64,000 nt of DNA, from IMG/VR virus record IMGVR_UViG_2585427773_000003. One strand, given 5' to 3'. The notes beneath the pieces are model-generated. The model worked only from the letters and a program-made list of their open reading frames with translations. It was not told where the DNA came from and searched no databases. The number at the start of each line of letters is the position of its first letter. The stretch's first letter is position 1. This document shows, in pieces, positions 27,472 through 62,441 of this stretch. The DNA comes from a virus (lineage: Duplodnaviria; Heunggongvirae; Uroviricota; Caudoviricetes). The position numbers and the translations under genes were made by a program.

Positions 27472-28350
27472 TTAAATTTTTACATTGGTCAGTGCAGCGA
27501 TAGCCTTATCGTGCTTATTCGCCAGAGAGCAGTACCACTTCACACGGGTACGTACTGCGTCTTTGTTCTGTACAGTACCAATGTTTTCAACAACGATACC
27601 TGCGTTGTCGCCGCCATACAGACCAGTAACGCCGTTCTCTTCAGAAAGGTGCAGACAGTAGATATCCGCTTTGGTGGAGTCCACAACCGGAATGAAGTCG
27701 TTTACGATAAACGGAACGCCGTTATGGCACAGCATTGGTCGACCGAAGTTTTCCATCATGATTTCGGACGGGCCTACGTTTACAGTTCGCAGCAGCGCAC
27801 GATATGCGCGAAGATGCTCAGAACGCATCATGATGCAGTCTGCGCCCAGATCTTTAACTGCGTCGACCAGTTCGTCGAACATAGAGAAAGTCATGGATGC
27901 GCCGGAGATGTCGATCTTCTGATCGTCATGCATCAGCTTCGGAATACCGTCGAAGGCTTTGTTGTTAGTGGTGGAGTCGCCAACAATCAGATTGCGACGG
28001 AAGGCACGAGCCAGACCTTTGACTTTCTGACGAACCTGGATAGCCAGCTGGTTGTTGGTATCAGCCATAGTGGTAGCCAGGAATTTGTCGACGTCAACGT
28101 CGCCAGCCAGAATGCGCAGCTTCGCAACTTTCTCTTCGAAGGTTGCTGCGCCTTCGGTGATGGTGTCGTTCACATCAATGAAAGTAGCTTCGCTCAGCGT
28201 TTTTTCACGGTTGTACAGATATGCCTTTGAATTAATTTTCATAAAAGGCAGGATGGCAAACAGGTCATCGCGATCAATGATGGTTTCGATCACACCCTGT
28301 TCGAGTTCGTTGTTAGACAGCTTTTCAGCTTCTTCACGCAGTAATGGCAT
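27472..28350 (-). CDS. Major capsid protein
   Basis: 292 aa; position after scaffold gene and before terminator/decoration gene. Confidence 0.6.
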   Translation of the reverse strand: MPLLREEAEKLSNNELEQGVIETIIDRDDLFAILPFMKINSKAYLYNREKTLSEATFIDVNDTITEGAATFEEKVAKLRILAGDVDVDKFLATTMADTNNQLAIQVRQKVKGLARAFRRNLIVGDSTTNNKAFDGIPKLMHDDQKIDISGASMTFSMFDELVDAVKDLGADCIMMRSEHLRAYRALLRTVNVGPSEIMMENFGRPMLCHNGVPFIVNDFIPVVDSTKADIYCLHLSEENGVTGLYGGDNAGIVVENIGTVQNKDAVRTRVKWYCSLANKHDKAIAALTNVKI

Positions 28351-32890: not shown

Positions 32891-32945
32891 CCTGCTTCCG
32901 TATATATTTAATAAGTTACTTATTATTTATATATACAGAAGCAGG
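32891..32945. repeat. 55-bp imperfect palindrome, copy 2
   Basis: Near-identical to copy 1; lies 117 bp upstream of terS start. Confidence 0.9.
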
Positions 32946-36454: not shown

Positions 36455-38014
36455 ATGACTGTTCGGATTGTATCTAACGCAGTAAATGCGCTTATTTCTG
36501 GCGCAGATGACAAGGTAAAGCAACTGGTGCAGCAAATGTTGAGCTACGAAGTCGAGACTGGCGACTGGAAGGGCACAAGCACGATGTTCAACTGGAGTAA
36601 AAACTCGTTCCCTGCTGGCTTTGCCAAGCCTGTAGCGGCGAACTTGAACAAGGCGGGCATCAAATGTGTTCATATCCGCAAAGACAAAGCCCCGGCGCTT
36701 GGTAAACCAAATCCGGCGGTTAACCCATTCCCATACAATCCTGATTATGCGTATCAGGATCAGACTGTGGAAACACTGGTTCGAGAGGGAATGATGATTG
36801 CGCAGATCGCTACTGGTGGCGGGAAATCTAACGTTGCCTGCAAAGCAGCTGCACGTATCGGTCGAATGACATTATTTTTAACAACCCGCTCTGTTCTGAT
36901 GTTTCAAATGGCCGAAAACTTCCAGAGATCCATCGACTACCGCGCCGAAAATGGCGAACCGTGGTTAAAGGGCCAAAAGGTTGGAGTCATTGGCTCGGGG
37001 GAGTTCCAGGTATCACGACATATCAACGTCGCTACAGTTCAAACTCTGGCAAGTTTCCTTGAAGAACCACCACGCGATGCAACACCAGATAAAAAGAGCT
37101 ACCATCTCAAACGTCGGGAGTTGGTGAAACGCTTCCTTTCAAGTGTGTCTCTGCTTATTCTGGAAGAAGCGCATGAGTCTTCAGGCTCTAATTTCTATGA
37201 CATTGCCAGATTATGTGTGAACGCAGACTATCGTCTGGCGCTTACAGCCACGCCGTTCATGAAGGATTCGACGGAAGCCAACATGCGCCTGATGGCGGTG
37301 GCCGGGCGAATTGAAATTAAAGTCACAGAAAAGTACCTGATTGATCGAGGCATTCTGGCAAAGCCGTACTTCCTTTATCATAAAGTTGCCTACAAGCCAG
37401 ACGAGGCCAGAATCAAGGCCGAACTTGCCAACAAACACCTCAATTTTAGAGTTGGTATGAGCACCGCCTACCAAAAGGCTTATCAGTTGGGGATCGTGTA
37501 TAATTTGGGACGTAACGAGGCCATAGTGCGCGAGGCATTGCTTTATAAGCAACATTCACTCAACTGCATGACTCTGGTTCGTCTTAAACGCCACGGGCAA
37601 ATCCTGATGGAGATGATGAAGGAGTCAGGTCTTAAAGTTGATTTCATCTATGGGGAATCTAACCAGACGACAAGGCAAGCAAAGCTGAATAGTTTAGCGT
37701 CTGGTGAAATAGATGTTTTAATAGGCTCGACTATTCTGGATGTTGGTGTTGATGTGCCAAGCGTTGGTGCGGTCATTCTTGCTGGTGGTGGGAAAGCAGA
37801 AGTTGAAATGAGACAGCGTGTCGGTCGTGGCTTACGAGCCAAAAAAAATCAGGCAAACGTGTGTTTTATCACTGATTTCATTGACATTAGCAACAAATAC
37901 CTGTTGTCTCACTCTTATGAGCGAAAACACATCATCGACACCACACCTGGCTTTGCAGAAGGTGTATTGCCTATTGATGGAGCATTCGATTTTGGAGTTC
38001 TGAAACGAGATTAG
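36455..38014 (+). CDS. SF2 (DEAD/DEAH-type) helicase
   Basis: Walker A ATGGGKS, LEEAHE (motif II), TATP (motif III), QRVGRGLR (motif VI); RBS aaggaaagagg. Confidence 0.75.
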   Translation: MTVRIVSNAVNALISGADDKVKQLVQQMLSYEVETGDWKGTSTMFNWSKNSFPAGFAKPVAANLNKAGIKCVHIRKDKAPALGKPNPAVNPFPYNPDYAYQDQTVETLVREGMMIAQIATGGGKSNVACKAAARIGRMTLFLTTRSVLMFQMAENFQRSIDYRAENGEPWLKGQKVGVIGSGEFQVSRHINVATVQTLASFLEEPPRDATPDKKSYHLKRRELVKRFLSSVSLLILEEAHESSGSNFYDIARLCVNADYRLALTATPFMKDSTEANMRLMAVAGRIEIKVTEKYLIDRGILAKPYFLYHKVAYKPDEARIKAELANKHLNFRVGMSTAYQKAYQLGIVYNLGRNEAIVREALLYKQHSLNCMTLVRLKRHGQILMEMMKESGLKVDFIYGESNQTTRQAKLNSLASGEIDVLIGSTILDVGVDVPSVGAVILAGGGKAEVEMRQRVGRGLRAKKNQANVCFITDFIDISNKYLLSHSYERKHIIDTTPGFAEGVLPIDGAFDFGVLKRD

Positions 38015-38016
38015 TT

Positions 38017-38295
38017 ATGAGTGAAAAGAAAACAACTTACTGTCAGGTAGCATTGTCTGATAAGGCCAATGACAAACTTGGAAAGTTTCAAGTGAAACTA
38101 AAAGAAAAAAATATCAAAATGTCTAAGGCTGAAGTCATAAATACCATTCTGGAACAATTGACAATGGCCGACTTTGACAAGGTTATATCTTCTGTCGGGG
38201 CTTCCGCTAAGACTCGTGAGAAAATCATGCGTATCTATGAGAACTCTAATATGACAAAGGAAGATCTCGAAACGCTATTAAGCAGATTAAAATAA
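38017..38295 (+). CDS. Hypothetical small protein (possible RHH-like)
   Basis: 92 aa, start 3 nt after helicase stop. Confidence 0.3.
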   Translation: MSEKKTTYCQVALSDKANDKLGKFQVKLKEKNIKMSKAEVINTILEQLTMADFDKVISSVGASAKTREKIMRIYENSNMTKEDLETLLSRLK

Positions 38296-38363
38296 TCACG
38301 CTATCAATTAGGGAGACAAAGATGAAGTCTCCCATACTGTTCACTTTCTGTTCTAAAACTATC

Positions 38364-38786
38364 ATGAAATACTCGCTTCTCCCTCTACTAACGTTACCAG
38401 TGTTGATGCTTACCGCGTGCCAATCACGCCCAATATCAATCCATGACGCCAAACCAGCACCGCAGGCCAAAGTGTTCAAGTATCAAAGCGCAGCGCCAGC
38501 TACGTTGGTGGTAATGAGAGACACAGGTTTTGTAGGAGCTGGATGTGATGCTTCCATTTTCATCAACGGCGAAACTGTCGCAAAACTGGCTACAGGCGAA
38601 AAAGCGACTTTCCATTTAAATGCCGGAGTATTAATTGTGGGTGCATCTCTTGAAGGTGCAGGTTTATGTGCTCTAAACCCCGCTCGTCAAGAGCGAGAAA
38701 CGACTCTGAAGAATGGAGACACAAAAGCGTTCAGGGTGTTCACCAGCAATTCTGGTGACATCGACATTCTGCCAACAACTCTGTGA
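38364..38786 (+). CDS. Lipoprotein
   Basis: Signal peptide MKYSLLPLLTLPVLMLTAC with lipobox LTAC. Confidence 0.5.
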   Translation: MKYSLLPLLTLPVLMLTACQSRPISIHDAKPAPQAKVFKYQSAAPATLVVMRDTGFVGAGCDASIFINGETVAKLATGEKATFHLNAGVLIVGASLEGAGLCALNPARQERETTLKNGDTKAFRVFTSNSGDIDILPTTL

Positions 38787-38790
38787 TGAC

Positions 38791-39315
38791 ATGACAACCA
38801 AAGATATTACCTACGGTATCCAAGCTGAACTCTGGCCGCGAGATTACACTAACGTTGAAAAACTACTGATGTTCTGGCGCAGAGAACAAATTCCTGTAAG
38901 GGTCACTCTCGAAGATGGCCAGGCGTTTTGCATGTACGTTTATGGCCTCATGCCATCTCGTAACAAAGTTGACCTTTGCCCAGCCCCTTTTGACAAAGAA
39001 AATCGTATAAGGCTCCCACTTGAACGCATTAGTACAATTGAATCAGGTGTGGTTGACAGTATCGCTCACGATTTCAAAGGTCGACTAACAGTTCACCCTG
39101 ATTATGTCGATAATCGGCCATCACGCCGCGATTTTTTTGCAATTTGCAACCAAGCCTACAAAGCAAACAAATCTATAAGGGTGTACATGGCGGATGGCCG
39201 TGAAATTGAGGGGGTGTCAGCAGGTGCAGATGCTTGTCAGGTTACACTACGTGTCGAGAACGGTAGAAAAATAGTTGTTTTGTTCGATTGGGTTGAACGA
39301 ATTTTGCCTTTTTGA
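38791..39315 (+). CDS. Hypothetical protein
   Basis: 174 aa ORF, ATG 5 nt after lipoprotein stop. Confidence 0.4.
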   Translation: MTTKDITYGIQAELWPRDYTNVEKLLMFWRREQIPVRVTLEDGQAFCMYVYGLMPSRNKVDLCPAPFDKENRIRLPLERISTIESGVVDSIAHDFKGRLTVHPDYVDNRPSRRDFFAICNQAYKANKSIRVYMADGREIEGVSAGADACQVTLRVENGRKIVVLFDWVERILPF

Positions 39316-39318
39316 GTT

Positions 39319-39627
39319 ATGAAATCGATATTGTTACCACCATTATTTTTACTTTGCTCAGTTGCAGCAAATGCAATGGACTATAAGCCTGTCATTCAGT
39401 CGCTGATGAATGACGTGTGCTCAACGTCTCAGAATGTATCAGTTTGCATGTATCAATTTTCGGCAGCCGTAAAAGCAGGAAAAGCGATAGGCGAGAATGT
39501 GGAACTGTGTAAGAAAGTGGCAAATGAAGAACGGGCAATGTTGGATTGCGAATCTAGCGAGTCATCGGCACAGTTCGTTGATGCGCTATTTGACACCAAT
39601 CGTAAGGCTGTAGAGTCTGTTCAATAA
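39319..39627 (+). CDS. Secreted/periplasmic small protein
   Basis: N-terminal signal peptide MKSILLPPLFLLCSVAANA. Confidence 0.45.
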   Translation: MKSILLPPLFLLCSVAANAMDYKPVIQSLMNDVCSTSQNVSVCMYQFSAAVKAGKAIGENVELCKKVANEERAMLDCESSESSAQFVDALFDTNRKAVESVQ

Positions 39628-39642
39628 ATCTATAAGGTTAAT

Positions 39643-39669
39643 AACCGGCTAAGTCCGGTTATTATTTTT
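39643..39669 (+). terminator. Rho-independent terminator
   Basis: Stem aaccgg/ccggtt followed by attattttt. Confidence 0.6.
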
Positions 39670-39817
39670 CACATCACTTCTTTATATCTACAAATCAAAT
39701 AACCTAAATATATATAAGGTCTAAAGCCGCAATCGATTATTTATTTAGGGAACACCTTCGACGATCTCGCTTTTATTTCTAGGACTTTCATCCCTGCAAA
39801 AAATTTTAAAAAAACAC

Positions 39818-39846
39818 TTGCAATCTTTTTTCGTATATCGATAATT
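39818..39846 (+). promoter_or_regulatory. Near-consensus sigma70-type promoter with upstream A/T tract
   Basis: TTGCAA-17 bp-ATAATT, preceded by aaaaaattttaaaaaaa UP-like element. Confidence 0.55.
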
Positions 39847-39910
39847 GAACTCGTCGAAAGCGAAGACGCTAACGACAATAAATTTTAAATTTACATAAGG
39901 AAAAATCATC

Positions 39911-40561
39911 ATGGCTAACATTATCATTTCTAAAAAATCCATCGTTGAAGCTGCTTCCATTGTATCCGATGAACTGCGCGAAAAAGCAGATCTGGCAACT
40001 CAAACATATAACGAACATTATAAAAATGGTACGCACACTAAAGCAGACAAAGCAAATATGCAAGCTGCGACCACTAAACTAGCTTACTTCATCAACAACG
40101 TTGTAAACGCTGTAGAAGACGAAAAATTGTGCTCTGTTTTCTACTATGCGATTAAAGCAAGCAAACAAGCGCCAGAAGTATTTTTTCGTGATGCAATGAC
40201 TAATAGTTATTCTCTGGAAAAACTGGTTTATCTGGTTAAATCAATTAAATCTGGTAAATGCATTTATTCCATCGCTGATATGTCTGGATCTCGTGTATTC
40301 GCTTTAATCGATATGATTAACGACGAGATCGACACGTTCACCAATGGCGCTGTTTTCGATTTAATGAATGAAGCTAAAAAAGCGTGTGAAATTAAATTGG
40401 ACGCTGGCTATACTCAAGCCAACCAGTTGATCAATCTTTGCGAACGTCTCGGACTTGTTGAAAAAGTCAAAGGAGCTGGGAGCGCCAAAGCTGGTACACA
40501 GCAATATCGCTTTATCAAGAATGATTTCTACAATTATTTAGCTGATGCTTTTAAAGCGTAA
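39911..40561 (+). CDS. Hypothetical protein (moron gene 1)
   Basis: 216 aa; AT-rich with codon usage unlike neighbouring genes; RBS aagga. Confidence 0.5.
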   Translation: MANIIISKKSIVEAASIVSDELREKADLATQTYNEHYKNGTHTKADKANMQAATTKLAYFINNVVNAVEDEKLCSVFYYAIKASKQAPEVFFRDAMTNSYSLEKLVYLVKSIKSGKCIYSIADMSGSRVFALIDMINDEIDTFTNGAVFDLMNEAKKACEIKLDAGYTQANQLINLCERLGLVEKVKGAGSAKAGTQQYRFIKNDFYNYLADAFKA

Positions 40562-40609
40562 TTAATGGAATCAAGCGCCCACAATGGGCGCTTTAAAGGA
40601 GCTTTAAAG

Positions 40610-40813
40610 ATGGTCAGCTATGACAAGATCCGCGCAGAATATCGCGCAAATTATCGCGCTTATAAACTGGAATTAATCGACGATTTGATCGCGCAACGCG
40701 ACCAATTAAATTTTACGTTTTCTGATTTGCTTAACAGCAAGCGAGATTGCAAGCGCAAACGTGAATACTTACGCTTAAGCGCATTAATCGGAAAACTTCA
40801 AAATTCTATTTAA
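40610..40813 (+). CDS. Hypothetical small protein (moron gene 2)
   Basis: 67 aa; RBS aaggag; preceded by intergenic hairpin agcgcccacaatgggcgct. Confidence 0.45.
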   Translation: MVSYDKIRAEYRANYRAYKLELIDDLIAQRDQLNFTFSDLLNSKRDCKRKREYLRLSALIGKLQNSI

Positions 40814-40834
40814 TTTTTTTTAAGGAGCTTAATC

Positions 40835-41065
40835 ATGTTTGTTCTTATCGCTGGCGTTAACGTCCATAATGAATATTATGTTAATCGCATCGCTGGGATC
40901 GCTGGTTACGCTGGGCGCGTAGTCGAGCTTATAGATGAAACGACGCGCAAAATTGACTTATTGAGCGACCAGGAGCGAAAAAAAGCAGACGTGAACGACG
41001 CTGATCTATTTTTAATGTTAAAAGCGTTCGTAGAAATGGGATTTAAAATCAGTTTACACAAATAA
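40835..41065 (+). CDS. Hypothetical small protein (moron gene 3)
   Basis: 76 aa; RBS taaggag. Confidence 0.45.
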   Translation: MFVLIAGVNVHNEYYVNRIAGIAGYAGRVVELIDETTRKIDLLSDQERKKADVNDADLFLMLKAFVEMGFKISLHK

Positions 41066-41070
41066 AATCG

Positions 41071-41096
41071 AGCGCCCACTATGGGCGCTTTTTTCG
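41071..41096 (+). terminator. Rho-independent terminator
   Basis: agcgcccactatgggcgct hairpin plus tttttt. Confidence 0.7.
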
Positions 41097-41115
41097 TTTC
41101 CAATACTTCCACAAT

Positions 41116-41141
41116 AACGCGCCATCAATGGCGCGTTTTTT
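41116..41141 (+). terminator. Second tandem terminator
   Basis: aacgcgccatcaatggcgcgtt hairpin plus ttttt. Confidence 0.6.
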
Positions 41142-41539
41142 ATTGTCTTTAACTCACTCCAACAACATAAAAATAAGCGCCAAAATAACGCCATAGACGC
41201 GCTTTTATATCCTTGCCAGTACATACCCATTACTTAACACATTAACGCGCTTAAAACGCGTTATAGCGCATAGTTAATCATTGGCTTTTAGTCTTGCTTT
41301 ATGATCCGCGTTTATTTGTCGGTGCGGATCGGTATTTTGTTTTGTTCTGTATCCGCTCGCGTATTATGTGCGCGTGATTTTTCACATAATCACACCACTT
41401 AATCACGTATGTGATTATGCTACGAAAGAAATCTGGATGTCTCAGGTGACGAAAGTCATCATAATTTTCCCCGCTCACCTGTCCGACAACCGCTGGTTGG
41501 ATTCCACCAGCTTCCCGATGTTTTTTTCTACACAAAGGC

Positions 41540-41665
41540 AAATGCAGCCGTTTCCCGAAAAAATCCTGGCCGTTCCCCGTCGGCTCATGAATACGTTCCT
41601 CGCCGCTTCTGAAAATTTCCCTGCGGCAGCTGGTGGCTATAGAGAAAGGGCCGTTTCTGGCCCTC
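41540..41665. repeat. Iteron-like direct repeats, cluster A
   Basis: Repeated GCCGTTTCCCGAAAA-like units at about 20-bp spacing. Confidence 0.45.
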
Positions 41666-41672
41666 TTCTCAG

Positions 41673-42155
41673 TTACACGCCATCAAGGATGTGGATGCGG
41701 TTGCTTGCGTATACATTCAGCATAAAGTTAGCGCAAAACAGTTTCCATGTATCAACGCCAGCGGTATACGTAATGTTTTTGCATTTAATTGCATTGTTGG
41801 CGATCCGCATCCCCTGCGATACTGCTTCATCGTCGGAAAATTTGAACGACGATTGAGTTTTAATCCAGACAGAAATCTGCGTAGCGAACTCAATCAGCTT
41901 GGACTGGCAGAATCGCCCGGAGCGCACCGGAAAGACGAACGTTCCGAATCCAGAATTTACCACATACGCTTTCTCAAATACCCGCGAGTAACGACGATTG
42001 CCAATGATGTCGCGTGCAATAATGCATTTTTCTTGTGCTGACAGTTCTACCGTCTCATTGTCGCGCCATGCACCAAGTACTCGTTTTTCAATGTCAGAGA
42101 ACGTTACAGCGATATTGCCATGTGCGGGTGCGTTTACAGTAGCGATAAAATTCAT
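41673..42155 (-). CDS. Hypothetical protein
   Basis: 160 aa ORF; operator-like motif 42177-42189 just upstream. Confidence 0.45.
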   Translation of the reverse strand: MNFIATVNAPAHGNIAVTFSDIEKRVLGAWRDNETVELSAQEKCIIARDIIGNRRYSRVFEKAYVVNSGFGTFVFPVRSGRFCQSKLIEFATQISVWIKTQSSFKFSDDEAVSQGMRIANNAIKCKNITYTAGVDTWKLFCANFMLNVYASNRIHILDGV

Positions 42156-42359
42156 GATTAATTCCTTATCGTAAATAACAAATTGTTTTCTTGTTGGTGT
42201 TAATTATCGTTGTACGAATAAGGCGTCAAAGTGGAAAGTTGCGGTAGCCGGACGGGAACAGGTGGGTTTGTCGGTTGCCTGGAGGTAAGAGGTTGGTGTT
42301 TTTAGCCTGCGGGAAACAAGATGGTCATTTAAGGCCACCAATGCTGATGGCCTTAATAA

Positions 42360-42503
42360 TTATCGCACGATTACGCTAAGGATCTTTTCCTCAACTGATT
42401 TGTTGTTGCGACTAAACTGCCTTGCGTATCTGATGACAGAAGAGGCGTTTTGCTTTCTGACCATCTCGGCTCTTTCCTTCAGGCGTTTCTTGAAATCGCC
42501 CAT
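42360..42503 (-). CDS. Possible small basic protein (47 aa)
   Basis: ATG at 42503, basic composition; below ORF-track size cut-off. Confidence 0.2.
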   Translation of the reverse strand: MGDFKKRLKERAEMVRKQNASSVIRYARQFSRNNKSVEEKILSVIVR

Positions 42504-42505
42504 AT

Positions 42506-42880
42506 TTACCACCAGGCGCAGAAGGTCAGTCTGTTATTGTGAAAGTCGTGGTTCTTAATCAGATCTTCCACAAGCTCTTTCAACTGCCCCACATCATGCC
42601 AGTAACCTTCATCGTACTCCTGACTGCCGAAGAAAAAACCTTCCCGGGTAGGCAAGTACTCTTCGCAATTACTTTCGTTTATGTGCATCAAATGAGCCTT
42701 CAGAAAACAAATGTCATTCATCGTTAATTCTAAAAGCTCACAATTTTCGACTTCACCTACGTTGCGCTCCATCCACCCAACGAGCGCATTGAACTTACGG
42801 AAGTAAGCAACCTGCTTTCTGGATGCCTCGTTATTCAGATCGTTTTTAGGTTGTGTCTCGATATAGATATCAAGTCCCAT
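42506..42880 (-). CDS. Hypothetical protein
   Basis: ORF starting MGLDIYIETQ. Confidence 0.4.
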   Translation of the reverse strand: MGLDIYIETQPKNDLNNEASRKQVAYFRKFNALVGWMERNVGEVENCELLELTMNDICFLKAHLMHINESNCEEYLPTREGFFFGSQEYDEGYWHDVGQLKELVEDLIKNHDFHNNRLTFCAWW

Positions 42881-42997
42881 GATGGTTTCCTTATTAAGTT
42901 GCTTCAGTGAAATCATTTTCACAAATCAGATAAGGCAGAAAACAAATTGTTATCGGGCTTAATAAAATGGCGCGGTTTACGCGCCATTTAAAGAGGA

Positions 42998-43393
42998 TTA
43001 AGCGAATACGCTTTCAGGGATTAAGGTGTCGGCAGGAATGCCAGAGGTAATGCGCAGGCCGTACTGACCAATCCAGGTAGTGTTGGTATTCAGGTTGGAG
43101 GCGAATACGGTGTTAACCATATTCATCATGGTTTCAAACACCTCTTCATCAACCTGGCGGAAGTAGTTCTCGATTTTCAGCAGCAGCGGGTCAGTTGCAT
43201 CGAAAATAGACTGGTATTGAGTCGCGTACTCGCCGCCGGAGGCATCACCTTTACGCACGATCGTACTGGCCTGGACTTCGGCACCAGTTTCGGTGTTGTA
43301 CGTAACAACGGTGATTTTTGCCACATTCTTACCTTCGGCGGTTTCAGAGGCATAGTAAACATCAACTGTCAGTTTTTCGCGTTTAACGGTCAT
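42998..43393 (-). CDS. Hypothetical protein
   Basis: ATG at 43393 with RBS ggagag; palindrome 43437-43452 upstream. Confidence 0.45.
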   Translation of the reverse strand: MTVKREKLTVDVYYASETAEGKNVAKITVVTYNTETGAEVQASTIVRKGDASGGEYATQYQSIFDATDPLLLKIENYFRQVDEEVFETMMNMVNTVFASNLNTNTTWIGQYGLRITSGIPADTLIPESVFA

Positions 43394-45049: not shown

Positions 45050-45190
45050 CCACCGTTCCTGAGCCGGCATCGAGCCTTTTCCCGAAATCCACACAGGCAA
45101 CTCGACCGTTTCCCTGAAAACCTCCAGCCGTTCCCCGAAGGCAACCCAGCCGTTTCTGTAGCGGGATGCAGCCTTTTCCCTGTATGGACC
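45050..45190. repeat. Iteron-like direct repeats, cluster B
   Basis: Six units resembling (A/C)GCCGTTYCCCKGAA at about 21-23 bp periodicity. Confidence 0.5.
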
Positions 45191-47474: not shown

Positions 47475-49508
47475 TTACTTAACCTGGTGGCCAGGTTTAG
47501 CACCGACATCCGGGCTTAACAGGAAGATATCTTTCCCGCCGGGGCCAGCAGCCATCACCATGCCTTCGGAGATACCGAAGCGCATTTTACGCGGAGCCAG
47601 GTTAGCCACCATAATGGTGTGACGACCAATCAGTGCCTGTGGGTCTGGATAAGCAGAACGGATGCCTGAGAAGACATTGCGTTTTTCACCGCCGAGATCC
47701 AGCGTCAGGCGTAGCAGTTTGTCAGAACCTTCAACAAACTCTGCGTTTTCAATCAGTGCCACGCGCAGGTCAACTTTAGCGAAGTCGTCAAAGGTGATGG
47801 TTTCCTGAATCGGGTCGTCTGCCAGTGGGCCAGTTACCGGTGCGGCTGTGGCTCTCACTTCTTCTTTGGATGCTTCCACCAGTGCTTCCACCTGTTTCAT
47901 ATCGATACGGTTATACAGTGCCTTGAACGGATTCACTTTATGGCCCAGCAGCGGTTGCTGGATACCATCCCAGGTCAGTTCTGTATTCAGGAATGCTTCT
48001 GCACGTTCAGTCAGTTTCGGCAGTACCGGCTTCAGGTACGTCATCAGCACGCGGAACAGGTTAATGCCCATAGAGCAAATCGCCTGCAGATCGGCATCGC
48101 GTCCTTCCTGCTTCGCCACCACCCACGGAGCCTGTTCATCGACATAGCGGTTAGCCAGGTCAGCCAATGCCATGATTTCACGGATAGCTTTACCAAATTC
48201 GCGGCTTTCCCATGCTTCGCCAATCACTTCAGCGGCATCAGTAAAGGTTTTGTACAGTTGCGGGTCAGCCAGTTCGTTTGCCAGCACGCCGTCAAAACGC
48301 TTGTTGATAAAGCCTGCATTACGGGAGGCCAGGTTAACCACTTTGTTCACGATATCGGCATTCACGCGCTGAACGAAATCCTCCAGGTTGAGATCGATAT
48401 CATCAATGCGCGAAGAGAGTTTCGCAGTGTAGTAGTAACGCAGGCTGTCGGCGTCAAAATGATTCAGCCAGGTGCTGGCTTTAATAAAGGTGCCGCGAGA
48501 CTTGGACATCTTCGCGCCGTTCACCGTCACATAGCCGTGAACAAACAGGTTGGTCGGCTTGCGGAAGTTGCTGCCTTCCAGCATGGCAGGCCAGAACAGG
48601 CTGTGGAAGTAAACAATATCTTTACCGATGAAGTGGTACAGCTCGGCGGTGGAGTCTTTCTTCCAGTATTCATCGAAGCTGGTGGTATCGCCGCGCTTGT
48701 CGCACAGATTCTTGAAGGAACCCATGTAGCCAATCGGCGCGTCCAGCCAGACGTAGAAATATTTGCCCGGCGCGTCCGGAATTTCAAAACCGAAGTAAGG
48801 CGCATCGCGGGAGATATCCCACTGTTGCAGGCCAGATTCAAACCACTCCTGCATTTTGTTTGCCACCTGCTCCTGCAACGCGCCGCTGCGGGTCCATGCC
48901 TGCAACATTTCGCTGAAAGAAGGCAGATCAAAGAAGAAGTGTTCGGAATCACGCATTACCGGGGTAGCGCCAGAAACCACCGATTTCGGCTCGATCAATT
49001 CAGTCGGGCTATATGTTGCGCCGCAGACTTCACAGTTATCGCCGTATTGATCTGGCGCTTTACATTTCGGGCAGGTGCCTTTTACAAAACGATCCGGCAG
49101 GAACATGCCTTTTTCCGGGTCGTACAACTGAGAGATAGTGCGGTTTTTAATAAAACCGTTCTCTTTCAGGCGAGTATAGATAAGCTCAGACAACTGACGG
49201 TTCTCTTCGCTGTGCGTCGAGTGATAGTTGTCATAGCTGATGTTAAAGCCTGCGAAATCAGTCTGGTGTTCCTGACTCATTTCGCCAATCATCTGCTCCG
49301 GTGTGATACCAAGCTGCTGTGCTTTCAGCATGATCGGCGTACCGTGGGCATCGTCGGCACAGATGAAATTAACCTCGTGGCCGCGCATTCGCTGGTAACG
49401 AACCCAGACATCAGCCTGGATGTGCTCCAGCATATGGCCGAGGTGGATTGAGCCGTTAGCGTACGGCAGCGCGCACGTCACCAGAATTTTCTTCGCGACT
49501 TGGGTCAT
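47475..49508 (-). CDS. metG: Methionine--tRNA ligase
   Basis: 677 aa; HIGH-type motif [16 protein letters not shown], Zn-knuckle CPKC...C..CG, C-terminal tRNA-binding domain; sequence recalled as very close to enterobacterial MetG. Confidence 0.95.
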
Positions 49509-49665
49509 AGTAGGCATTACTTCTTTGTAGTGAAAAGGGGCTTGATAGTAACAAAATGGCCTTATGTCTGCCATGTGATAACAGCATTTCTCATAAATGA
49601 TTAAATGTCGTAGCTGGAGTACACTACAAGGCGACAATTGCGCAAATTAAAATAAAGGAGACGGG

Positions 49666-62386: not shown

Positions 62387-62441
62387 CCTGCTTCCGTATA
62401 TTAATAATTAATATGTAGTTATTTATATATACAGAAGCAGG
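62387..62441. repeat. 55-bp imperfect palindrome, copy 3 (variant core)
   Basis: Same cctgcttccgtata...atatacagaagcagg arms as copies 1 and 2, with altered central AT-rich core. Confidence 0.85.

Follow-up and report, generated by a model that had tools for sequence, protein, structure and literature searches.

The window (the whole 64-kb stretch of DNA that was analysed) is part of an E. coli SSU5-like phage-plasmid. It contains a block of three genes which the original prediction described as an AT-rich, horizontally acquired moron resembling virulent-phage early genes. All three ORFs exist as claimed, and the annotated CDSs of a 99.7% identical relative, plasmid p4_0.2, agree with them. 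The ribosome-binding sites (RBSs) are as strong as had been proposed: TAAGGA, AAGGAG and AAGGAG for genes 1, 2 and 3, located 7-9 nt 5' of the start codons. The block is bounded on both sides by conserved terminators. Its features are as follows:

39626..39790, + strand: conserved control array with TATAAGG boxes, block B and block C (alignment, box counts)
39639..39664, + strand: intrinsic terminator closing the operon upstream (helicase to FljA-like), which marks the left edge of the unit (terminator scan)
39797..39845, + strand: sigma-70-type promoter (promoter scan)
39853..39877, + strand: 5'-terminal stem-loop of the predicted mRNA, GUCG..AGCG....CGCU..CGAC (fold, covariation)
39911..40561, + strand: gene 1, 216 aa, 24 kDa, phrog_1513, core gene of enterobacterial SSU5-like phage-plasmids
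40574..40592, + strand: internal copy of the boundary hairpin, AGCGCCCACAATGGGCGCT, without U-tract, left edge of the cassette slot
40610..40813, + strand: gene 2, 67-aa basic protein, pI 9.6, phrog_6145, accessory cassette
40835..41065, + strand: gene 3, 76-aa protein, phrog_1585, accessory cassette
41071..41143, + strand: tandem intrinsic terminators (terminator scan, folding)

Terminators, control region and promoter

The left terminator consists of a hairpin (TAATAACCGGCTAAGTCCGGTTATTA) with T5 behind it; it has a folding energy of -12.6 kcal/mol (z = -4.3) and is nearly invariant in 10 relatives despite the varying gene that precedes it. On the right, a hairpin with T6 (41071-41095) is followed by a second terminator, AACGCGCCATCAATGGCGCGTT (41116-41137), whose T6 extends to 41143. 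Both are GC-rich hairpins with a U-tract (z = -4.65 and -5.59), and the segment is invariant in 10 of 10 relatives regardless of the preceding content. The repeated hairpins of the original prediction were also confirmed: AGCGCCCA-N3-TGGGCGCT occurs exactly twice in the 64 kb (at 40574 and 41071), compared with 0.01 occurrences expected. The copy behind gene 1 is followed by TTTAAAGG (UUUAAAGG) in place of a U-tract, and the 53-nt stretch containing it (40560-40612) folds at -15.5 kcal/mol. This hairpin is found at the equivalent position in all enterobacterial relatives, and in a Buttiauxella relative with an empty cassette site (L009) it carries T6. Since no U-tract follows it in the window, the internal hairpin probably terminates leakily at best and/or stabilises the gene 1 message at its 3' end.

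Upstream of gene 1, TATAAGG boxes (39626-39640, 39706-39721) are followed in the control array by block B, which spans 39738-39763 (ATTTATTTAGGGAACACCTTCGA), and by block C, which spans 39771-39790 (TTTTATTTCTAGGACTTTCA). An extra copy of the box lies within the FljA-like gene (39169-39183). In the alignment of ten enterobacterial relatives the blocks of the array are invariant, and they are kept in relatives of 33-54% identity. At least one TATAAGG box was present in 76 of 77 distinct upstream regions (median 2), compared with 0.027 per 450 nt elsewhere. A search of box patterns did not find the motif in the rest of the 110-kb genome, the remaining 46 kb included. In the window, TATCGATAAT, block B, the box motif and every 14-mer of the control region had no recurring copy outside the locus. 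No operator common to other promoters of the genome emerged, and hence no link to a genome-wide repressor.

The promoter had been given as TTGCAA-17-ATAATT. TTGCAA and the A-tract upstream of it stand, but the register does not, as TTGCAA-16-GATAAT fits better: an UP-element-like A-tract (39797-39813), the -35 TTGCAA (39818-39823), a 16-nt spacer and the -10 GATAAT (39840-39845). A 9/12 promoter match alone is not above chance (8 found in 5 kb, 10.8 expected). Three elements do not vary among the ten aligned enterobacterial relatives: the A-tract, CTTG (with the TTG of the -35) and TCGATAATT. Relatives of 33-54% identity have promoter-like hexamers and an A-tract at the equivalent position. 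Transcription would start at about 39852. A sigma-28 promoter read from TCGATAA was dropped, its -35 region being unsuited when judged by eye.

The predicted mRNA would begin with the stem-loop at 39853-39877 (-9.8 kcal/mol, z = -2.35). In a small sample of eight sequences 94% of cells were paired, with compensatory changes in two pairs, compared with 14-44% for slid controls. This lends weak to moderate support to a conserved 5' stem-loop, possibly an mRNA stabiliser or a regulator target. Searches of Rfam over 38000-43000 gave chance-level matches only. The TATAAGG array and the putative stem-loop point to tight, specific control. Repression of gene 1 through its 5' UTR by the FljA-like protein was kept as a minor possibility only. 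The E. coli fliC 5' UTR has no similarity to that of gene 1 except for the RBS and start. FljA-type proteins act post-transcriptionally and the mRNA remains (PMC2652032), so such an action cannot account for the 0-2 FPKM recorded in a lysogen (see below).

Gene 1 is a conserved core gene

Gene 1 was found in 815 PLSDB plasmids and in essentially every enterobacterial SSU5-like plasmid. Its genus counts match those of the major capsid protein, which is present in about 790 plasmids at 80% identity or more. The structural genes are 8 kb away on the opposite strand. The position of gene 1 after the helicase and FljA-like genes is kept even at 33-39% identity, and synteny was seen in relatives of 33-54% identity. 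Absence from close relatives, as expected of a moron, was not observed for gene 1; variable presence applies only to genes 2 and 3. Judged by these sequence comparisons, gene 1 is a lineage-wide, position-fixed core gene.

The claimed AT-richness is real. Windows of 1.5 kb have a mean GC content of 0.471 (sd 0.032); that of 39640-41150 is 0.377, which makes it the GC minimum of the 64 kb and places it among the lowest 0.24% of such windows. Upstream of gene 1 the GC is 0.31, with A-tracts. Atypical codon usage, proposed for all three genes, was found in gene 1 only, while genes 2 and 3 show no departure from the element. With weights from the Sharp-Li E. coli table, the codon adaptation index (CAI) of gene 1 is 0.438, compared with an expected 0.342 +/- 0.029 (p = 0.001). 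This is the fifth highest value among 74 ORFs, comparable to those of the capsid gene and the other high-ranking ORFs of the window, most of which are unidentified. Its GC3 is 0.346 compared with 0.473 (p < 0.0005), and the bias favours the high-expression codons of E. coli and does not resemble foreign usage. The GC of gene 1 is below that of its locus in each of the six lineages tested: 0.39-0.41 in five of them (locus 0.48-0.55) and 0.32 in the sixth, Pectobacterium (locus 0.36). Low GC in all lineages tested, together with E. coli high-expression codons, favours a maintained trait over recent import. The AT-richness and the codon bias of gene 1 are probably old, maintained traits.

Expression was assessed in Cyrano, a relative of the present element with a 96%-identical gene 1 protein and a near-identical promoter. 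The Cyrano orthologue of gene 1, CYRAN_113, gives 0-2 FPKM in the lysogen. In the table, where 5 stands for zero and the Cyrano median is 9.8, CYRAN_113 is at 5.9 and CYRAN_112 at 5.0 (PMC9928086 S1 Table). Not until 6 h in macrophages do the values reach about 45. Both genes are under the moron cut-off of 49, and many other Cyrano lytic and replication genes show an equal small rise at 6 h (PMC9928086 S1 Table). Transcription from the repressed prophage, which is expected of a moron, was thus not seen in this relative. With CYRAN_113 at the detection floor in the lysogen, gene 1 is not a prophage-expressed conversion gene. The literature on SSU5-like elements yielded no usable induced-state transcriptome or virion proteome.

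The gene 1 product is predicted to form a helical hairpin and a C-terminal winged-helix domain (AlphaFold2, pLDDT 81). The C-terminal 90 residues were modelled in the order H-S-H-H-S-wing-S, with pLDDT 80-90 over residues 130-210. Their best structural matches, though weak, are winged-helix proteins such as MukF/MukE, Orc/Cdc6 domains, RTP and the PadR/ArsR type, to which there is no sequence-level relation. Foldseek matches to winged-helix domains were weak (E = 0.015-0.4, TM-scores about 0.3), the best being E = 0.015 against PDB and 0.14 against BFVD, so the putative winged-helix assignment rests on these and one AlphaFold2 model. The N-terminal hairpin and middle helices of the model had no specific structural match. 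No significant Pfam, NCBIfam, PADLOC or PDB sequence match to gene 1 was found, and a profile search of 1.84 billion proteins returned 23 representatives, all from its own family.

The most conserved motif of the protein, the polar GYTQANQL, is located at the start of the predicted recognition helix. This motif and the adjacent conserved DNA boxes are indirect hints that the protein may bind DNA sequence-specifically. Unlike the winged-helix proteins named above, the predicted domain is acidic (pI 5.3, compared with 7.6 for the whole protein), which argues against DNA binding. Among the best fold matches are winged helices that bind protein (MukF/MukE). Regulators do not usually have such highly adapted codons.

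The cassette slot behind gene 1

Genes 2 and 3 are promoterless cassettes which occur in many combinations and are missing in some relatives. A cassette consists of an RBS, a gene and a hairpin, and is located between duplicate copies of the terminator hairpin. The slot has at least eight arrangements, for example the array HP-g3v-HP-g3-HP. In the 87 IMG/VR loci with gene 1 and the reference loci examined, its occupants belong to two gene families only. Gene 1 is the conserved core of the block, and only the two small downstream genes are exchangeable add-ons.

Gene 2 was found in 517 plasmids, none of them from Yersinia, and every homologue lies within SSU5-like elements. In SSU5 it is labelled "MIT/CorA transporter", which was rejected as being without Pfam or NCBIfam support. 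Gene 3 was found in 415 plasmids, 157 of which have a variant of about 51% identity. Outside phage-plasmids, its nearest relatives belong to the virulent Pseudomonas phage PAK_P4, whose early region (gp080-gp124) encodes them: gp116 and related Pakpunavirus early-region proteins are similar in size and 38% identical over 96% of the length. These belong to a different host and phage type, and nothing gene 1-like adjoins them. An ORF of IncX4 conjugative plasmids, within a run of small ORFs, is 43% identical to gene 3. PADLOC, the models of which represent defence and not anti-defence, gave no match for genes 1 and 3 and a chance-level one for gene 2 (E = 0.027).

Mosaic phage genomes have conserved boundary (linker) sequences at module junctions. 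Like these, the 19-nt hairpin with its flanks brackets an exchangeable segment and gives relatives a stretch of homology at which to recombine; unequal exchange accounts for arrays such as HP-g3v-HP-g3-HP. In contrast to them, the boundary here is a functional terminator hairpin which is duplicated on insertion, and the segment is limited to two small gene families. Integron-type cassettes were considered and rejected, as the hairpins are identical terminator stems and not variable attC sites, there is no adjoining integrase and only two families occur.

Interpretation of the unit and its alternatives

The block is most likely a lytic-phase, high-output transcription unit. The preferred reading, held with about even confidence, is that it represents a conserved "gene 1 transcription unit" of phage-plasmids of the SSU5/pHCM2/pMT1 type, designed for high output but silent during the element's life as a plasmid prophage. 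That it is lytic, early and of high output is inferred from the design, namely the promoter, the RBSs and a CAI near that of the most codon-optimised genes of the element. Upon induction or infection, host RNA polymerase would fire from the UP-element promoter, and the gene 1 message would be stabilised by the 5' stem-loop and by the hairpin that follows the gene. This hairpin may have lost its U-tract through cassette recombination and would let a fraction of transcripts continue through genes 2 and 3, beyond which the tandem terminators would halt transcription ahead of the convergent genes. The TATAAGG boxes and blocks B and C could be sites for a factor that either keeps the promoter off or is needed to activate it. 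The gene 1 protein would be abundant and a dimeric (helical-hairpin) winged-helix protein, binding DNA, possibly these boxes, in lytic development. Cassette exchange would require nothing more than homologous recombination between the hairpin copies of co-resident phage-plasmids.

The original prediction was correct in giving the unit its own promoter, strong RBSs and terminators. Its comparison with virulent-phage early genes is supported by the PAK_P4 relatives of gene 3 and by the early or lytic look of the unit. Gene 1 and the boxes aside, the block is built like an ordinary phage transcription unit. Of the moron reading, variable presence holds for genes 2 and 3, but not for gene 1, which is core, syntenic and silent in the Cyrano lysogen. 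Lambdoid morons in the Juhala/Hendrix sense are extra genes with their own promoter and terminator, located between conserved genes and expressed from the prophage. The block is like them in its compactness, its flanking promoter and terminators and a GC below that of its surroundings, and in that genes 2 and 3 come and go among relatives that are otherwise collinear. It is unlike them in that gene 1 is core and not extra, the unit is silent in the (Cyrano) lysogen, and genes 2 and 3 are promoterless and found inside a terminator rather than between two genes. An acquired moron, expressed autonomously from the prophage and giving the lysogen exclusion, anti-defence or host-modifying functions, would explain the private promoter and terminators, the lowest GC of the window and the variable genes 2 and 3 with relatives in other mobile elements. 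It is nevertheless very improbable, as gene 1 is syntenic down to 33% identity, its low GC recurs in every lineage tested and is paired with a high CAI, CYRAN_113 and CYRAN_112 are at the detection floor and under the cut-off (PMC9928086), and PADLOC gave no significant match. For gene 1 the moron reading is largely refuted.

Three other explanations were weighed. Gene 1 may be a conditional lysogen gene under H-NS-type xenogeneic silencing, activated by host signals (intracellular environment, temperature) and serving the bacterium or plasmid instead of the lytic cycle. The AT-rich, A-tract-bearing upstream region is compatible with this, as is the roughly eight-fold rise after 6 h in macrophages, where virions are not produced (PMC9928086); however, many other Cyrano lytic and replication genes rise likewise. 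Gene 1 is also intact in all 62 Y. pestis pMT1 plasmids, but pMT1 keeps the capsid gene as well, so that little can be read from this retention. Sequence-specific blocks conserved at 33% protein identity speak for a dedicated factor over generic AT-binding, and silencing of this type is considered unlikely. A similarly doubtful alternative is an entry-phase counter-defence or host take-over set, in which gene 1 and the cassettes are the first to be expressed once the DNA has entered, so as to neutralise host systems. The strong promoter and RBSs are typical of early-gene design, and gene 3 has its relatives in the PAK_P4 early region and among the small ORFs of IncX4 conjugative plasmids. However, no similarity to any known anti-defence protein was found, and gene 1, at pI 7.6, is not acidic as DNA mimics are. 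Finally, gene 1 could encode a late, abundant virion-associated or assembly protein (scaffold-like or a packaged DNA-binding protein) from outside the structural module. Its capsid-like CAI and the largely helical model with a long hairpin would suit such a role, which is quite improbable given the distance from the structural genes, the other strand, the sigma-70/UP-type promoter and the lack of a PHROG structural category for phrog_1513.

The preferred reading of a gene 1 transcription unit has a wider form, which is rather improbable. Gene 1 would found a family of abundant winged-helix proteins that define the lineage of SSU5/pHCM2/pMT1 phage-plasmids and switch or organise its lytic development, run by the private conserved TATAAGG array. 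The slot behind it, embedded in a terminator, would pick up entry-phase genes that virulent phages and conjugative plasmids also have.

Clinical E. coli, Klebsiella, Enterobacter and Salmonella (pHCM2 type) commonly harbour SSU5-like phage-plasmids, as does Yersinia pestis (pMT1), and these elements can carry resistance genes. The analysis corrects a likely misreading, in that an AT-rich gene with its own promoter does not equal an acquired conversion gene, and it removes a false transporter label from gene 2. Gene 1 and its conserved boxes offer a cheap, testable entry point to the control of the plasmid-to-lytic transition in these elements.

Conservation of gene 1 and its neighbours

The AT-rich block at 39640-41150 shares 99.7% identity with E. 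coli plasmid p4_0.2, 93-99% with Escherichia phages CMS-2020a and PhiR41_1, 90% with the related phage-plasmid Cyrano and ~81% with Salmonella phage SSU5. In all, 771 PLSDB plasmids match it, from genera that include Klebsiella, Escherichia, Enterobacter, Yersinia and Salmonella. The annotated neighbours are an ABC ATPase, two ParB-like genes, a DEAD-box helicase and structural genes, with RepB elsewhere in the genome. Together these matches and neighbours indicate that the window is an SSU5/pHCM2/pMT1-type phage-plasmid. The three open reading frames of the block are present as predicted, each behind a strong Shine-Dalgarno sequence; relatives list their products as hypothetical proteins.

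Features of the block
39169: TATAAGG(G/T)(T/C) box inside the FljA-like gene
39626 and 39706: further TATAAGG(G/T)(T/C) boxes
Downstream of the boxes: block B, ATTTATTTAGGnAACACCTTCGA, and block C, TTTTATTTCTArGACTTT
39818-39823: TTGCAA promoter hexamer
39911-40561, plus strand: gene 1 (216 aa)
40574-40592: boundary hairpin, proximal copy
40610-40813, plus strand: gene 2 (67 aa)
40835-41065, plus strand: gene 3 (76 aa)
41071: boundary hairpin, distal copy
41116-41143: second terminator

By TBLASTN gene 1 is present in 815 plasmids, while the capsid protein (27475-28350) is found in 954, ~790 of them at at least 80% identity. Genus counts for gene 1 and capsid agree almost one to one: Klebsiella 346/340, Escherichia 217/200, Enterobacter 91/91, Yersinia 62/62, Salmonella 49/49 and Citrobacter 25/25. 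Only 23 family members turned up when 1.84 billion representative proteins were searched with a profile. At 54%, 39% and 33% identity the gene still follows the ParB/ABC block and the helicase and FljA-like genes, ahead of convergent small genes. Gene 2 occurs in 517 plasmids (none from Yersinia) and gene 3 in 415, with a ~51%-identical variant in 157, pMT1 among them.

Composition and codon usage

At a GC content of 0.377 (background 0.471 +/- 0.032) the block is, as predicted, AT-rich; no other 1.5-kb stretch of the window has a lower GC. Unusual codon usage had been claimed for all three genes; it holds for gene 1 alone, genes 2 and 3 not differing from background. With weights from the Sharp-Li E. 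coli table, the CAI of gene 1 is 0.438, the fifth highest among 74 ORFs, against 0.342 +/- 0.029 when its synonymous codons are redrawn at random from the usage of the element (p = 0.001). Its GC3 is 0.346 vs 0.473, and it prefers GCT, GTT, TCT, ACT, AAA, GAA and CGT and shuns AGA, AGG and CGG. Such a bias looks more like translational selection than like foreign origin. The GC of gene 1 is 0.39-0.41, vs 0.48-0.55 for the locus, in SSU5, a Klebsiella phage, pMT1, a K. quasipneumoniae element and a metagenomic relative at 33% identity, and in Pectobacterium it is 0.32 vs 0.36; it is thus below that of its own locus every time.

Besides the capsid gene, the top codon-adapted ORFs of the window are 47475-49574 (699 aa, CAI 0.50), probably, from its size and order only, the MetRS-like gene of the Cyrano annotation, and 42998-43393 (CAI 0.53), a 131-aa hypothetical in the convergent block immediately right of the unit.

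Promoter and upstream control region

Of the proposed near-consensus promoter, TTGCAA and the upstream A-tract stand, and the register shifts by one base, to 16 nt followed by GATAAT. A 9/12 promoter match alone is not above chance (8 found, 10.8 expected). The A-tract, CTTG and TCGATAATT are invariant in ten aligned enterobacterial relatives, and relatives at 33-54% identity carry promoter-like hexamers and an A-tract in the equivalent position. Phylogenetic footprinting therefore supports TTGCAA-16-GATAAT as the putative promoter, though the match score alone does not. A stem-loop begins exactly at the predicted mRNA 5' end (94% paired, two compensatory pairs across eight sequences).

The stretch from the upstream terminator to the promoter contains sequences that are better conserved than the promoter spacer. 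The boxes and blocks B and C are all present again in Pectobacterium, K. quasipneumoniae and metagenomic relatives, and at least one box was detected in 76 of 77 distinct upstream regions (median 2; ~75 times background). A search of the rest of the genome found no use of the box motif elsewhere. This confinement to the gene 1 locus points to a private regulator or autoregulation.

The product of the gene directly upstream, 38713-39315 (likely start 38791), matches the FljA family strongly (PF03614, 'repressor of phase-1 flagellin', E = 2.5e-84) and has a C-terminal part resembling Hfq; it might silence host flagellin in lysogens. An FljA-type gene precedes gene 1 in SSU5, K. quasipneumoniae and Pectobacterium; in pMT1, Klebsiella, Enterobacter and Citrobacter the gene in this position is annotated merely as 'transcriptional regulator'. 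So is the Cyrano counterpart, CYRAN_114, which is expressed in the lysogen. A 102-aa ORF at 39319-39627 (phrog_9536), whose N-terminus resembles a signal peptide, separates the FljA-like gene from the upstream terminator. The gene at this position varies among relatives; the terminator behind it stays invariant.

The cassette slot, the proteins and expression in the lysogen

The predicted shared-stem hairpins are borne out: the 64 kb contain exactly two copies of AGCGCCCA-N3-TGGGCGCT (0.01 expected). The distal copy is followed by T6 and then the second terminator, and the proximal copy is without a U-tract. The hairpin lies 13 nt after gene 1 in every enterobacterial relative. In Buttiauxella it has T6 and leads straight to the second terminator, representing an empty site. 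Cassettes have the form TTT(T)AAGGAG..ATG-gene-stop-N5-8-hairpin and are inserted between stem and T-run, so the second hairpin copy closes the cassette. Exact copies of the hairpin are present in 94 IMG/VR stretches, 87 with gene 1 and 7 too short to reach it. In those 87 loci and the reference loci covered, only two gene families occupy the slot, in arrangements that include hairpin only, gene 2, gene 3, genes 2 and 3, gene 3 variant, gene 2 plus variant, variant-hairpin-gene 3, gene 3 twice, or tandem 44-47-nt hairpin repeats. The window has lost the hairpin that separated genes 2 and 3 and keeps T8 there. Homologous and unequal recombination between hairpin copies would be enough to explain these arrangements.

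Other repeats were also noted. Within gene 2 (40631-40659) a 12-nt tandem repeat (CGCGCAGAATAT/CGCGCAAATTAT) encodes a repeated RAEYRANYRAY peptide. Non-coding clusters of CCGTTTCCC-like direct repeats, which look like iterons or centromere-type sites, lie at 41500-41660 (two, in the convergent intergenic region past the terminators) and 45075-45180 (four, near 45.1 kb); the equivalent place in the 33%-identity relative (L013 7034-7165) carries five. A long palindromic element, CTGCTTCTGTATATATATAAATAATAAGTAACTTATTAAATATATACGGAAGCAG, has nearly identical intergenic copies at 42-96 and 32898-32945 (minus strand) and a probable third near 62420; one copy is directly upstream of the structural gene block.

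Searches of Pfam, NCBIfam, PADLOC and PDB sequences gave no significant match for gene 1. Its AlphaFold2 model (pLDDT 81) comprises a long helical hairpin, a small helical middle and a C-terminal H-S-H-H-S-wing-S domain. Foldseek gave weak, consistent winged-helix matches to MukF/E, Orc/Cdc6, RTP and PadR (E = 0.015-0.4) and to phage HTH proteins (E = 0.14 and above). The most conserved motif, GYTQANQL, starts the predicted recognition helix, but the C-terminal domain is acidic; DNA binding is therefore no more than plausible. Gene 2 encodes a basic protein with homologues restricted to SSU5-type phage-plasmids; the 'MIT/CorA' label it carries in SSU5 and PHROGs found no support. Pakpunavirus phages encode 38%-identical relatives of gene 3, including PAK_P4 gp116 within the early region gp080-gp124, and a 43%-identical relative sits amid small ORFs on IncX4 plasmids.

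Cyrano, whose gene 1 protein is 96% identical and promoter region near-identical, served as expression proxy, using RNA-seq of E. coli LF82 carrying it (log2(FPKM+5); PMC9928086, S1 Table). In overnight LB, CYRAN_113 (gene 1) reads 2.78/2.32 and CYRAN_112 (gene 3) 2.32/2.32, or 0-2 FPKM. Both are below the element median and neighbouring CYRAN_114, and far below the authors' moron cut-off (PMC9928086). In medium they are still low at 1 h and 6 h, and after 6 h in macrophages they reach no more than ~5.5 (~40 FPKM) (PMC9928086, S1 Table). The unit, as measured in Cyrano, is thus off while the element is a plasmid. A literature search found no induced-state expression data for SSU5-like elements. 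In the same LF82 data for Cyrano (OV696614), CYRAN_43, a hypothetical adjoining the integrase, is ~700-fold over element background and CYRAN_98, a LexA-like S24 peptidase gene, is high too; both are candidate lysogeny-maintenance genes for this phage-plasmid type.

The block forms a real transcription unit with clear boundaries, very probably not the acquired moron of the original prediction: gene 1, its position kept down to 33% identity and silent in the Cyrano lysogen, is a core gene of long standing, apparently designed for high output. Moron-like character is limited to genes 2 and 3, and neither of these has a promoter. Most likely the unit serves the lytic phase and would yield a predicted winged-helix protein in abundance, governed by a dedicated control array upstream. 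An uncharacterised protein family sits within otherwise familiar architecture, and the slot behind gene 1 is a tidy case of cassette exchange at a terminator hairpin.
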